NCBI GenBank assembly: GCA_965215565.1
Contig: CBDCDZ010000004.1
Coordinates: forward strand, 672,001-736,000
Direction: 5' to 3'
From: Trueperaceae bacterium
GTDB lineage: Bacteria; Deinococcota; Deinococci; Deinococcales; Trueperaceae
DNA length: 64,000 nucleotides
Below, one piece after another: positions 3,661-62,565 of the stretch. The translations under genes and the position numbers were made by a program. Under the pieces are notes generated by a model, which searched no databases, had not been told where the DNA came from, and worked only from the letters and a program-made list of their open reading frames with translations. Positions within the stretch are counted from its first letter, which is position 1. Every line of letters begins with the position of its first letter.

Positions 3661-3728
3661 TAGCAATGAGCAACGAGCAATGAGTAAAACCTTTTGGACT
3701 CATTGCTCGTTGCTTTCAACTCATTGCT
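3661..3728. repeat. Heptamer-based (AGCAATG/AGCAACG) imperfect hairpin repeat
   Basis: agcaatgagcaacgagcaatgagt...actcattgctcgttgct; relatives at 25171-25336, 53408-53462 and 54469-54549. Confidence 0.7.
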
Positions 3729-3789
3729 TTTTTCTAGCAAGCAAGCTTACAGCGATAGGTCTCTTTAGAGGTCATGCTCGAGTTTATAG

Positions 3790-9465: not shown

Positions 9466-9681
9466 CTGACGCTATTATAGCGCGTCGCTACCGCCATAGC
9501 TGTTTCGGGACGAGCGGCGAAACGTGGTCACGGTCTCAAATAAACAGCAGTTCCAAAACATACTGAGACAAAGTGTCGCAGGTATCATTACCGAACGTGT
9601 GCTGCTTACGCAGTTTTCCGAAGGAAACGACGTTCTCAAAAGTAAGAGTGTCTCAAACCAGATGAACTTAGTATAGAGTTG

Positions 9682-10620
9682 TCAAGCCCCCTTCCACCTC
9701 TGTGGGTGCTGCTGAGTGACTTGCAGCATGAAACGAAAGAGTTCTCTTGCGAGATAGGTTTTGAGACTTCTTAGAGCAGCCCGGCGGGTCTTGCCTTGCT
9801 GCTGTTTCTTGTCGAGATAGGCTCTTGTCGGTTCGCTGTGGCGCAGTCTGACTTGGGCAATCATGTGAAAGGTGCGGTTGAGCCGACGGTTGCCGCCGAT
9901 GTTGAGTTGCCTTCTCTTCTGACCACCAGAAGAGCGCTCGACAGGCGCACAACCTGAATACATGGCAAAGGCGTGTTGTGAACGAAAGCGTCGGATGTCA
10001 CCTGCTTCAGCAAGTAGCGTGGCGGCGTGAACGACGCCGACGCCAAAGACCTCTAAGAGTTCAGGCATCAGTTCGTCAACGAGGGCTTTCATCGCCTGCT
10101 CGAGCGTCTTGAGTTGTTCTTTAAGCACTGCAATAACGGCTTCGACGGCTTGGCGAGCCACCTCTAGCTCAAGGCTCGCTAAGCTCAGCTTGTGCGCTGT
10201 AAGCTGTTTAGCTAGCGCTTCTCGGGTGCGGGTCAGATGTTTGAGGTCTTCAACCGCTTGCCGAGGTGCAAACGTAGTCAGCTCAGGATTAGCCAAAGCA
10301 GCCCGAGCTACGTTTTCAGCGTCTACCTCATCACTCTTCTTGCGTCCTCTTTTGCTGCGGTACTGACTCGTCAGACTCGGACTAATGTCCACAACCTTAT
10401 GGTCCTGCCCGAGCAACGCTTGACTCAACCTCCGAGCAAAGGGGTTATTCGCCCCTTCAATAGCGCACCGCTGAACGTCATAGCGCTTTATCCAGTGCTC
10501 CAAAGTTGCCAAGCCCTCAGCCGTATTCGTAACGGTGCAGTGACCTAATACCTTGCCCTGTTTATCTAACGCTGCTGCGGTATGGCTCTGCGGATGTGGA
10601 TCAACCCCTATAATGACCAT
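9682..10620 (-). CDS. IS110 recombinase/transposase (DEDD RuvC plus Tnp20 serine domain)
   Basis: GVD, IEG and KSDEVDA acidic tetrad; GCAPVERSSG serine motif; GNRRLN; AAGGAGG RBS. Confidence 0.97.
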   Translation of the reverse strand: MVIIGVDPHPQSHTAAALDKQGKVLGHCTVTNTAEGLATLEHWIKRYDVQRCAIEGANNPFARRLSQALLGQDHKVVDISPSLTSQYRSKRGRKKSDEVDAENVARAALANPELTTFAPRQAVEDLKHLTRTREALAKQLTAHKLSLASLELEVARQAVEAVIAVLKEQLKTLEQAMKALVDELMPELLEVFGVGVVHAATLLAEAGDIRRFRSQHAFAMYSGCAPVERSSGGQKRRQLNIGGNRRLNRTFHMIAQVRLRHSEPTRAYLDKKQQQGKTRRAALRSLKTYLARELFRFMLQVTQQHPQRWKGA

Positions 10621-10639
10621 ACAACCTCCTTAGGTTGCT

Positions 10640-10779
10640 GCTCACGGTAGCTGCTTATCCGTCTATGAGGCTACTAAGCGTCTTAGTATCAGGCAAGCTC
10701 CGTGTAGCTTAGTGAGCGAGGTGTGCAGTTCATCTGTTAGCCCTAAAGCTGATACTTGCTGGGCATCACCTCGCTTCTC
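10640..10779 (-). ncRNA. IS110 bridge RNA with target-binding and donor-binding loops
   Basis: LTG AGCAAGTATC (10751-60), RTG CAGATGA (10730-36), LDG ATACTAAG (10682-89), RDG ATAGACGGA (10658-66), each pair inside a closing stem; RNA ends are approximate. Confidence 0.9.
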
Positions 10780-10800
10780 TTAATATACGGATACCTGCTA

Positions 10801-10841
10801 AAAAAACGGAAGAGGTCCGCTTTCTAAAGCGGACCTCTTCC
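10801..10841 (-). terminator. Intrinsic terminator of the aconitase gene
   Basis: GGAAGAGGTCCGCTTT/AAAGCGGACCTCTTCC hairpin followed by a U-tract on the minus strand. Confidence 0.85.
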
Positions 10842-21327: not shown

Positions 21328-21428
21328 TAGCAGTTCCACGACATACTGAGACAAAATGCCGCAGATATCATCTCGTAAAGTGCGTGCTACTCAAAGTGAG
21401 AGCGTCTCAAACCAGATGATACCTGCTA
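21328..21428 (+). mobile_element. MITE A, intact short copy (empty IS110 target)
   Basis: TAGCAGTTCC...CCAGATGATACCTGCTA with ATT on both flanks. Confidence 0.85.
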
Positions 21429-23705: not shown

Positions 23706-23867
23706 CTTATCGCTAAAATCTCCAATTCCCGCTAGCGAACAAAGGGTTGCAACTCCTTGTTCATATTCAGTGAGCATTCCAGAGTAAAGCCACTACCATA
23801 TTTACAACGAGAAGCTCGAGAGAATTCCCCATGACCTCTTCTGCTCAGTCCGTCCAAGCGGAACGCA

Positions 23868-23978
23868 CAGCAGGTCCAAACTATACTGCGGCGGATGAAC
23901 GCAGGTGGCATCTCCAAACGTATAGGCTAGTCGGTGTTTTCTCGAGTGTGCGCGTTTTTGACCAGATGAACTTAGTAT
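23868..23978 (+). mobile_element. Degenerate MITE A copy ending in an IS110 right-end junction
   Basis: CAGCAGGTCCAAACTATACTG start; 23961-23978 is identical to 9657-9674. Confidence 0.7.
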
Positions 23979-25173: not shown

Positions 25174-25383
25174 CAATGAGTGAAAAGCAATCTAGTCAAG
25201 CTGGTGGCTTTAGCTTCTGAAGGAACGATTACGAAGTTTTCGCAGAAGCGAAACGGTGAGCAGCGAGTAAAAAGCGTTTGACTTTAGCTTTCAACTCACT
25301 GCTCGTTGCTTTCAACTATCTTTTACTCATTACTCAAAAACGACAACCTCTCCCCCTAGTCCGATACCCTGTTACAGTGGCCT

Positions 25384-47680: not shown

Positions 47681-47852
47681 TAGCAAGTATCATTTGGTTT
47701 GAGACGCTCTCACGATGTAGAACACCGTTGCCTAACGGCAAACTACGTAATTCGCTTTGCGAAAACTTCGTCCCTACGGGCTTTCAGAAAGCAGCACGCA
47801 CATTTGAGAATGATACTTGCGCTACTCCAATCAGCACTTATGTTAACTGCTA
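47681..47852 (-). mobile_element. MITE A copy inside a heptamer hairpin
   Basis: TAGCAAGTATCATTTGG...AACTGCTA on the plus strand. Confidence 0.8.
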
Positions 47853-49657: not shown

Positions 49658-49862
49658 TAGCAGTTCCACGACACACTGGGACAGTTGAACGCACGTCTCT
49701 GTCCGTAAGGACTAGCGTTACGGGCAGGCCGCCCTGCCGTTGCGGGATTTCATCCCTTAAAGTGCGTGCTAATTACGAAGTTTTCCGCAGGAAACAGCGT
49801 TTCACAAAGTGAGAGTGCTGCTTTGCAAAACTTCGTACACTCTGACCAGATGATACCTGCTA
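49658..49862 (+). mobile_element. MITE A copy (empty target)
   Basis: TAGCAGTTCC...CCAGATGATACCTGCTA with CCT on both flanks. Confidence 0.85.
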
Positions 49863-50811: not shown

Positions 50812-50943
50812 TAGCAGTTCCAAGACACACTGAGACGAAATGCCGCAGGCATCATCACCGAACGTGCGTGCTAAACGTCGCTTCGGGCAGTAAGAGTGTT
50901 GCTTCGCATCGCTCCGCGCACTCAAACCAGATGATACCTGCTA
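50812..50943 (+). mobile_element. MITE A copy (empty target)
   Basis: TAGCAGTTCC...CCAGATGATACCTGCTA with TCA on both flanks. Confidence 0.85.
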
Positions 50944-53248: not shown

Positions 53249-53492
53249 TTCAGTTGCGACCTGCAAAACGTATCGGTGTATCGTATCCGTTCGCACAGTT
53301 GCGCGTCAATGCAAAAAGGGTGTGTAGGGGACGTCATTTTTCAAGTATGAAGATGGTGCGCTTTATAGTTGCTGGGGAATTTTGCGTTGGCTCGGTGGTT
53401 GTATTGGAGCAATGAGTTCAAAGCTAATGAGCAATGGGTGAAACCCTCTAGACTCATTGCTCTGAATGCTCAGCCTCGAGCTACACTGCGTC

Positions 53493-54476
53493 ATGGACCT
53501 CCTCATCTTAGGCGGCACCCACTTCGTCGGGCGGCACATGACTAGAACCGCGCTAGACAGGGGGCACACCGTCACCCTCTTCAATAGGGGCAAGACCAAC
53601 CCCGAGCTGTTCCCTGACGCTGAGCATTTACGCGGCGATAGAGACGGCGACATGAGCGCATTAGAGGGGAGAGCCTGGGACGCGGTGCTGGATATGAGCG
53701 GATATCTACCGCGCATTGTCCGCAACTCGGCGGAGCTTATCCGAGCGGAGCACTACACGTTCGTCTCGAGCATCTCCGTTTACCCCGACGACGTGCCCTT
53801 ACACGCCGACGAGAGCGCCGAAGTGATTCAATTGGACGACCCCACCACTGAAACCATCGAGGGCGAAACCTACGGCGGTCTCAAGGTGCTGTGCGAAGAG
53901 GTCGTGAAGGAAGTCAAGGACGCCGCGCTCATCCTGCGCCCCGGCTTAGTCGTCGGACCCTTCGACTACACGGACCGCTTTGTGTACTGGTCGCACCGCG
54001 TGGACGAAGGCGGCGAGGTATTAGCGCCCGAAGGACCCGGCGTGCCGATACAGTTCATCGACGCAAGGGACTTCGCTGACTTCGCCATCTCCTCTGCTGA
54101 GTCAAGGCGCACCGGAACGTACAACGTCGTGAGCAACGCAGATCACTTCACGATGGGAGAGCTTTTGGAGACGTGCAAGCGGGTGAGCGAGAGTGACGCC
54201 ACGTTTACGTGGGTAGCTGAAGACTTCTTGCTGGAGCAAGGCGTCAGGCGCTTTAGTTGGGATTTACCCCTGTGGATCAAAGAGGAGGACCGAAATTTTC
54301 TGCGCGTCAGCAGCGAAAAGGCGCTCGGTCAAGGCTTGGAGATAAGACCCTTGGAGCTGACTGTCCGCGACACCTTGGGCTGGGACAAGACGAGACCGGA
54401 GGGCGAATTCACTAGGGTCGTATCGAGGGAAAGAGAAAAGAAAATTTTGGAGGAGTGGCGTAAAAAGAAGCAATGA
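53493..54476 (+). CDS. NAD-dependent epimerase/dehydratase family protein
   Basis: GGTHFVG, SSISVY, YGGLK motifs. Confidence 0.9.
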   Translation: MDLLILGGTHFVGRHMTRTALDRGHTVTLFNRGKTNPELFPDAEHLRGDRDGDMSALEGRAWDAVLDMSGYLPRIVRNSAELIRAEHYTFVSSISVYPDDVPLHADESAEVIQLDDPTTETIEGETYGGLKVLCEEVVKEVKDAALILRPGLVVGPFDYTDRFVYWSHRVDEGGEVLAPEGPGVPIQFIDARDFADFAISSAESRRTGTYNVVSNADHFTMGELLETCKRVSESDATFTWVAEDFLLEQGVRRFSWDLPLWIKEEDRNFLRVSSEKALGQGLEIRPLELTVRDTLGWDKTRPEGEFTRVVSREREKKILEEWRKKKQ

Positions 54477-55276
54477 GTTGAAAGCAACGAGCAATGAGTT
54501 TTGTCCTTTCACTTTCGACTCATTGCTCATTGCTCGGTACTCATTGCTCTTCACAGAAAATAGCGTTCGGCAACAAAATAAGGGGTCCCGTTTTGCGCGT
54601 TGAGGAGAAGCTATCCGGCTTGCCTACACACTTCACGTAATTCCGTACGCAAAACGTGATACACCGCAAAACAAAAGGAAACACCCTCTACCTTGTCTCG
54701 CTCTCTCGGTTCTTCCGCACCAAACTCAATAGTGGGATAGATACGCGCTCGAGCCTCTAGTGGCAAAGGGTGTCTCGCTGTGAGGATTGATCTTGATCCT
54801 TATCTATAAATGGTCCTCCTGTTCACTAACTTGGAGCGATTGTAACTCTTTGAGTACAACTAATGAAGGGTGGCAAGTCCTAATTGTCAGGGGCGCGTCA
54901 TGCTATGATCATAAGTTGGGGCTGGAAACTTATACCTTATTATTTTGCAAAGATACCTCACGCCGCTCTGCGCGCAGTTTTTTAGCAAAGGCTATTAGCC
55001 GTTGAGCACCCCTATAGAATCTGTTTTAACTGCTCCAAAGCTTGACGCAAATCGCGCTGCTTCGTATGGTGGATTTGAAACCCACCCCTACCACGCCAAA
55101 ACGTTCTCTCATTCGTGAGCAGCGCTGAGATTCACACTTCGTAGGTTAAAGTCACAGCTCGTCCACAAAACGTAGCGATAAGGCGATCTATTGCTTAGGG
55201 CTATATGCAGGACTCGAGCCTCGCATTCTAGGCAACTTCATAGTTTCGCGCGGCTTTCTAACCTTAAAGTAGCGAC

Positions 55277-62388: not shown

Positions 62389-62565
62389 TAGCAGTTCCAC
62401 AACAAATTGAGACGAAATGCCGCTTTCTGAAAGCTGCTGCAAGCAGACGGAAGTTTTGGCAACGCCAAAGGCATCATCACCGAACGCGCGTGCTAGTTAC
62501 GCAGTTTTCTGTAGGAAACATCGCTTTACATACTAAGAGTGTCTCAAACCAGATGATACCTGCTA
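62389..62565 (+). mobile_element. MITE A copy (empty target)
   Basis: TAGCAGTTCC...CCAGATGATACCTGCTA with AAA on both flanks. Confidence 0.85.

Follow-up and report, generated by a model that had tools for sequence, protein, structure and literature searches.

The window (the whole stretch of 64,000 nucleotides that was analyzed) contains an element that is very probably a recently active bridge recombinase of the IS110 group, belonging to a clade with a TC core and guided into the ends of a MITE; expression of the RNA, the circular intermediate, and the chemistry of exchange are ascribed to it by analogy with IS621 and CazIS110. The observations that carry this reading are the anatomy of the element, the identity of the site occupied by all of its copies, the covariation of guides with DNA, and the MITE nature of the target (Table 1).

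Table 1 Coordinates of the IS110-group element, its predicted RNA features, and MITE copies in the window
Feature	Positions	Strand	Remarks
IS110-group element including both TC core copies	9664-10791	-	Seven full copies in genome G000, contig C4
Recombinase CDS, 312 aa: DEDD RuvC-like domain (D7, E55, D97, D100) and Tnp domain with SS 230-231	9682-10620	-	Pfam, NCBIfam, conservation, AlphaFold/Foldseek
Left non-coding end, encodes predicted bridge RNA	10621-10789	-	169 nt
Predicted -35 hexamer TTGACA, half of circle-junction promoter	9680-9685	-	Overlaps stop codon
Predicted -10 hexamer TATATT	10782-10787	-	Overlaps TAT of short sub-terminal repeat
Predicted target-binding loop, closing stem and internal hairpin	10715-10775	-	
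Left target guide (8 nt + core)	10751-10760	-	9/10, one mismatch at target -4
Right target guide (7 nt with core, 7/7; 10730-10736), then handshake guide AC(U)	10727-10736	-	10/10 to right junction
Predicted donor-binding loop with closing stem	10643-10704	-	
Left donor guide, 8/8, donor -9..-2	10682-10689	-	10680-10681 match neither -1 nor first core base
Right donor guide (9-nt pattern, bulged like that of IS621; 10658-10666) and handshake UA, complementary to target-left TA	10656-10666	-	IS621 pattern: PMC11208158
Predicted 3' hairpin holding recombinase Shine-Dalgarno sequence	10621-10638	-	MFE; pairs kept in 6-8 of 8 homologues
Intrinsic terminator of upstream aconitase-like gene (named from look of ORF)	10808-10841	-	Directly ahead of element
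Left 9 nt of host MITE (target left)	10792-10800	-	3-bp duplication TTT at 10801-10803
Rest of host MITE	9545-9663	-	Second TTT copy at 9542-9544
Empty MITE copy, TSD AAT	21328-21428	-	Intact target and duplication
Empty MITE copy, TSD AGG	49658-49862	-	Intact target and duplication
Empty MITE copy, TSD TGA	50812-50943	-	Intact target and duplication
Empty MITE copy, TSD TTT	62389-62565	-	Intact target and duplication
Empty MITE copy, minor subfamily (A at -4, T at +3)	47681-47852	+	
Right-junction-only scar: 9 nt donor-left, core, and target-right on decayed MITE, without IS	23964-23978	-	

The left junction of the element reads TAGCAGGTA-TC-CGTATAT and the right junction ATACTAAGT-TC-ATCTGG, and from these two the empty target and the circle-junction donor follow just as the original prediction had reconstructed them; the non-coding end of 170 nt that it described measures 169 nt. 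The recombinase comprises an N-terminal PF01548 domain and a C-terminal PF02371 domain with a conserved serine, scores 171 bits against NCBIfam NF033542 (cut-off 140), and has sequence matches in the PDB only to IS621 and ISCro4 chains. An AlphaFold model (pLDDT 91) matched 8WT6 in Foldseek (E 6e-18), so that Pfam, NCBIfam, and the IS621 fold agree with the compact DEDD-plus-serine IS110 recombinase that had been proposed. D7, E55, and D100 are invariant in 72/72 aligned homologues, and D97 and S230/S231 are present in 71/72. A long left and a short right end (16 nt), an ATA/TAT sub-terminal repeat of 2-3 bp, and no TIR are features of the IS110 rather than the IS1111 group, and a further trait of that group, a short core at both ends and in the empty target with site-specific insertion, is seen in 7/7 copies. 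In every testable feature the element agrees with the bridge recombinases of the IS110 group.

Mapping of all genomic copies, a check suggested along with the original prediction, placed 7/7 full copies (six identical, the seventh differing by one substitution) at one and the same TC, 9 nt inside a MITE end, and none at an unrelated site; both junctions are exact in all seven, which share the 9 nt of target left, the TC core, and target right. Identity of the 111-nt MITE copies to their consensus has a median of 83%, whereas the IS copies are near-identical; the MITE is therefore old and the IS110 burst recent, and the element was recently active. In contigs of run X1, depth on the IS was ~10x that of the flank, which is not a copy number and comes from a run that, like X2, may be the assembly's own sample; in run X7, one contig joins both flanks without the element. 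A further copy (C4:3452615-3453449) has many small deletions and lies between two copies of the same MITE start, reflecting either decay or an assembly artefact. The congener G056 (L002/L035, C2 ~567.3 kb) has a single copy with the same four guides, with another repeat inserted right after the start codon.

Passive spread of the seven copies, as MITE cargo or by gene conversion between MITEs, would likewise leave all of them in one repeat family, and two do share extended MITE sequence. The host MITEs, however, differ in length (remainder ~100-186 nt), in sequence, and in their duplications (kept in 4/6 occupied MITEs with a right end, the host of the window copy among them), yet the IS copies are identical, and the likely MITE transposase was not found in this genome. 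Identical IS copies in divergent hosts largely refute passive spread, which we hold to be very improbable, and guided insertion at MITE ends remains the preferred account.

The multicopy landing site had been called a MITE from the window, and the genome bears this out, with 404 left ends identified by a 17-nt end pattern, a recognizable right end in 270, and a modal length of 111 nt (95 copies), the longer forms being modular. A 3-bp direct repeat flanks the TAG..CTA termini in 158/270 copies as against 8.9 (maximum 18) in 2000 shuffled pairings, and alignment of copies nested in other repeats to empty paralogues confirms the 3-bp duplication. Short, non-coding, present in many copies, and bounded by terminal repeats and a target-site duplication, the target repeat is a real MITE. 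Four copies in the window that had been cited as intact targets are real and intact, although the positions given mark the opposite ends; the ends that carry the target are at 21428, 49862, 50943, and 62565. The MITE end motif was found in 5/5 relatives searched, in three genera. Insertion of the IS parts the terminal 11 nt of the MITE from an inner TGAGAC motif and probably immobilizes the copy.

With respect to the origin of the MITE, an IS630 element of ~990 bp in the congeners G035 and G056 has ends that resemble the MITE far end at 21/25 and 19/25 positions and a 3-bp duplication; these were 2 of 29 loci scanned, and the link to the MITE is one of end resemblance. Paired-end scans and tblastx with this IS630 element found no MITE transposase in the genome under study, and profile searches there with PF13358, PF13359, PF01609, and PF07592 had a silent control and were uninformative. 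The usual pattern in the IS630 family is a TA duplication. A TA-duplication model for the MITE was ruled out by the 3-bp duplication outside TAG..CTA; the IS630 elements L158:1402-2394 (G035), L163:1038-2028 (G056), and L103 (C4 ~411.5-412.7 kb) similarly have ends that begin with TA and a variable 3-bp duplication outside. A REP/REPIN origin with a RAYT was also ruled out, as the repeat has duplications and the sole Y1 match lies inside a restriction-modification ORF. That match (L105, C4 ~3786.2-3786.6 kb) is a Y1 (IS200-like) domain in frame within a long ORF resembling a restriction-modification methyltransferase. Elsewhere, a MITE copy with a CTA duplication (C4:1933083-1933188, L144) breaks the catalytic ORF of a different IS630 element, and in G047 the MITE-end 15-mer occurs in short tandem arrays of period 22-36 nt (C1:334637-334695, 417511-417621, and others). 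The window holds at least two more dispersed repeat families (3672-3736, 25289-25327, 53426-53462, and 54461-54551; 23740-23800), and the genome several further ones, into which the MITE has inserted.

The left end of the element was predicted to encode a bridge RNA of two loops, and the target guides were found as described, with 9/10 matches on the left and 7/7 on the right. For the donor guides the claim stood in part: the left matches at 8/8 and the right at 8/9 if taken as contiguous, but the right is better read as a bulged pairing like that of IS621, and the left is not a plain match to donor left, since it covers only -9..-2 and reads neither -1 nor the core. Similarly, the closing stem proposed at 10715-23/10767-75 is a perfect 9 bp, whereas that at 10643-54/10693-704 is imperfect and bulged. 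Beyond these four guides, both handshake guides are present, that of the target loop being complementary to donor-left GT and not to target left. When the left end was shuffled 5000 times with its dinucleotides kept, 43, 2, 42, and 20 shuffles reached the respective guide matches singly, and 0 reached two or more. The left end has a fold z of -3.0. RNA folding, another of the suggested checks, gave a divided result: the single-sequence MFE closes the guide loops (-57.6 vs -49.5 kcal/mol with guides forced open), so that the isolated RNA folds 8 kcal/mol better with its guides partly paired, whereas in the consensus of eight homologues two stems form, each with an internal loop that stays open and a small hairpin, 17/34 pairs having changes on both sides. 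The open loops of the consensus and the covariation of guides with DNA agree with the claimed two-loop architecture. No stem-loop was found 5' of the target-binding loop, and Rfam returned no family, with two chance-level matches. By analogy with IS621 and CazIS110, the RNA of the left end would be expressed, bound by the recombinase, and needed for recombination as a bridge RNA. The 3' hairpin over the ribosome-binding site may have a regulatory role.

Covariation was assessed among relatives of the recombinase collected by alignment-based scans of genome contigs, a single-protein scan having found none. Fifty-three loci (at least 250 aligned residues, 44% identity) and one paralogue were examined, 37/54 with both junctions; 33 of 34 distinct insertions were parsed (L008 was left out and L043 parsed by hand), giving 24 distinct guide pairs in 10 clusters. 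The parser located guides by the conserved motifs beside them and accepted only TC and GA, which puts pairing of the core outside its test, and the relatives are kin rather than independent, so that the permutation figures are not probabilities. Over the 24 pairs, the left target guide matched its flank at 132/168 positions (permuted 70.9, maximum 97) and the right at 109/120 (permuted 51.5, maximum 72); over the 10 clusters the counts were 51/70 vs 25.9 and 44/50 vs 15.6, each reached in 0/5000 permutations. For pairs and clusters alike, the agreement of target guides with their flanks thus lies far above permutation. The first base of the target-loop handshake pairs with donor -1 in 24/24 (permuted 12.8) and the donor-loop handshake pairs in 22/24 (13.8), and the left and right donor guides match at 185/192 (169) and 48/48 (40.1). 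These donor and handshake signals, strong over 24 pairs, weaken over 10 clusters, in which the target-loop handshake (10/10 vs 8.2, equaled in 514/5000 permutations) is indistinguishable from permutation. Cognate handshake pairing, by which IS621 is blocked, is nearly absent (2/24 and 1/24); the post-exchange handshake state promotes recombination by IS621 (PMC11208158). Five loci (L087, L040, L092, L046, and L098) match their flank poorly on one side. In a relative from G038 (75% identical), both the guides and 3/3 insertions are shifted 3 nt further along the same repeat end, which is natural retargeting.

MITE ends account for 293 of the 295 genomic sites with at most one mismatch to the 14-nt guide. 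At target position -4 the left target guide has a mismatch to the sites in use, the guide being a hybrid of two MITE subfamilies, with one A:C mismatch to the major (exact 15-mer at 230 ends) and one G:T wobble to the minor (52 ends); two genomic sites match it perfectly, and neither is occupied. No preference for the major subfamily was seen, as 7/7 copies in a class of 326/404 ends is within chance (~0.2). It is conceivable that a structure in the MITE is also needed for target choice, the 14-bp match being necessary but not sufficient: the target lies within one arm of the long internal hairpin of the MITE (z -2.3 in one copy and less marked in two more), and such a requirement is reported for ISPpu10 (bioRxiv 10.64898/2026.03.19.712850). 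However, relatives sit at unrelated sequences that follow their guides, and one occupied MITE lacks its far end; nearly all guide matches being MITE ends, the genome data do not separate a need for structure from a guide match. We consider an added structural requirement unlikely and retain choice by the guides.

The linear form yielded no promoter, but across the reconstructed circle junction TTGACA and TATATT are spaced by 18 nt. Excision would join the right end to the left across TC and create this promoter, which would drive a bridge RNA of ~150 nt with two loops and the recombinase message; the circle could be single- or double-stranded. The target loop is expected to pair with both strands of the 14-bp site in the left terminal repeat of the putatively IS630-derived MITE and the donor loop with the circle junction, so that the RNA-protein complex would bring donor and MITE end together. 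Strands would then be exchanged around TC, and after top-strand exchange both handshake guides could pair with the other partner, driving insertion. Insertion would split the MITE end between tip and inner motif, and the MITE would offer the IS ~300 intergenic landing sites. Inserted IS621 is expressed weakly (PMC13626964); expression from the inserted window copy should likewise be low because it stands right behind a terminator. The circle junction was not found in the assembly, nor among the joints listed for four contig sets, and contigs drop rare forms.

Three further places in the genome carry the left junction alone, also at that TC, and one in the window the right junction alone. In two of the left-junction hybrids, the IS and the body of the MITE meet at 4-5 nt common to both, and one retains the 3-bp duplication of the MITE. 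At C4:269795 (minus strand), a MITE far end has its outer 14 nt swapped for the left junction of the IS110, with 5 nt common to both at the joint. Such hybrids would be expected if movement were mainly by copy-out or by direct single-junction transfer (reactions of the target loop only or with half matches) instead of a conservative reaction of circle and target. Recent preprints (bioRxiv 10.1101/2025.10.25.684509 and 10.64898/2026.08.31.748434) describe products of this kind for CazIS110-1 and IS621, respectively, and favor copy-out. Simple deletion after normal insertion, however, explains the shared joints and the kept duplication, and both junctions are exact in every full copy. The single-junction scars fit deletion or half reactions alike; we judge movement mainly by these other routes to be rather unlikely, though deserving some weight, and favor the conservative insertion of a circle.

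The TC core, which had been claimed in place of the CT of IS621, is clade-wide, being found in 41/42 loci on each side with anchors free of any core assumption; 42/53 loci had such anchors, and a few are one locus fetched twice. At the second core position, where the element has C, T is almost invariant in IS621 and is read by G63; N84 reads the partner of the first core base (PMC11208158). The core-reading loop of the element, E-G-A-N-N-P-F, is one residue longer than that of IS621 by HMMER alignment, its G56, A57, and N58 do not vary, and the residue aligned to N84 is S80 (S in 52/72 homologues); these changes in the loop and at S80 may set the preference for TC. On the donor side, 6 nt separate the ATA repeat from the core as against 7 in IS621, and the left donor guide reads -9..-2, 2 nt outward and skipping -1, where that of IS621 reads -7..core1. 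The guide base opposite donor -1 matches in 4/24 (permuted 4.1), and the next matches the first core base in 18/24, though not in the element or most of its closest relatives. The native right target guide spans 7 nt with both handshakes matched, compared with 4 nt in IS621, which also has the 5' stem-loop that the element lacks and targets REPs rather than MITE ends. In its core, donor-guide register, and 5' end the element stands outside the IS621-like subgroup. With IS621 and ISCro4 (IS622) it nonetheless shares the DEDD RuvC and Tnp serine domains (~25% identity, TM 0.7), a long left and short right end, a junction promoter motif, a target loop followed by a donor loop, the bulged right donor guide, handshake guides, the ATA..TAT sub-terminal repeat, and insertion into an intergenic repeat of many copies. 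Target position 4 is non-canonically paired in IS621 as well (PMC11208158).

Several relatives are also found in the ends of mobile elements. A decayed paralogue (C4:421041-421970, L180; 56% identical, with an internal stop and a longer target loop) sits in an IS630 terminal repeat that its own guides match, and intact ends of that IS630 are present at three other places in the genome. Two relatives are inserted 7 nt within an end that precedes an IS6-family transposase, and two at IS3-type frames; the shared target of the IS6-like group fits the GG-4N-G rule for IS6 ends (PMC8944449). A Pfam scan of downstream flanks at 23 relatives' loci detected a transposase in 5, at the junction in 4 of these, the other 18 flanks being in many cases short, and an IS6 transposase was detected in only 2/10 scanned loci with the IS6-like target. 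These findings are suggestive of a clade aimed at IS ends, which they show only in part. A broader proposal, which we put forward tentatively and with slightly more doubt than belief, is that the element belongs, as its best-documented member, to an undescribed subfamily with a TC core, centered on Deinococcota and orthogonal to CT-core IS621/IS622, with an EGANN core-reading loop, a shifted donor register, and guides repeatedly re-aimed at transposon ends (IS630 MITE, IS630, IS6), which it would immobilize. Such a subfamily would be an RNA-guided hyperparasite with a retargeting history readable from genomes, even to a shift of 3 nt along a single MITE end.

For engineering, the element may offer the whole of a 312-aa system that was active recently, its target, donor, and guides mapped without ambiguity, its right guide naturally 7 nt long, and its handshakes matched. 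Whereas IS621 requires T as the second base of the core, it may serve as a tool with a TC core; its shifted donor guide implies that design by the rules of IS621 would program it wrongly. For biology, the element appears to be a clean case of an RNA-guided IS to which a MITE gives safe landing sites in many copies, each of them probably disabled by the insertion, and natural retargeting can be seen among its relatives. In the literature covered, no description was found of the element, the TC-core clade, or an IS110 aimed at MITE ends; ISfinder and the supplements of bioRxiv papers (among them the 72 orthologues in 10.1101/2025.05.14.653916) are outside this scope and may hold a TC-core member, and the supplements of PMC11208160 and PMC11187229, as far as searched, contain no clade motif or taxon name.

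RUP is an IS630-derived MITE. Like MITEs of this type, the target is a structured, modular, intergenic repeat of ~111 bp with an end matching an IS630 terminal repeat; unlike them, it has TA as part of the element, a variable 3-bp duplication outside, and no TA duplication. Bridge RNAs are predicted in 85.7% of IS110-group elements (Durrant et al., PMC11208160), and IS110/IS1111 elements aimed at REPs, Tn21 ends, and IS3 genes are already described. The element is thus a variant of a described bridge-recombinase system, and the surprise is moderate because the mechanism class itself is published. Insertion inside another mobile element is shared with IS4321/IS5075 (IS1111 group), which land in Tn21 terminal repeats, and with ISEc21 (IS110 group), which lands in IS3 transposase codons (PMC11187229). 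In contrast to the hosts of these elements, that of the present one is a non-autonomous IS630-type MITE with hundreds of copies, and IS4321, of the other group, has its RNA in the right end rather than the left. ISPpu9/ISPpu10, IS1594, and CazIS110-1 are likewise described as IS110 elements whose multiple copies occupy one position of a genomic repeat, with a bridge RNA predicted or shown, and by those descriptions they are set apart from the element in both lineage and target.
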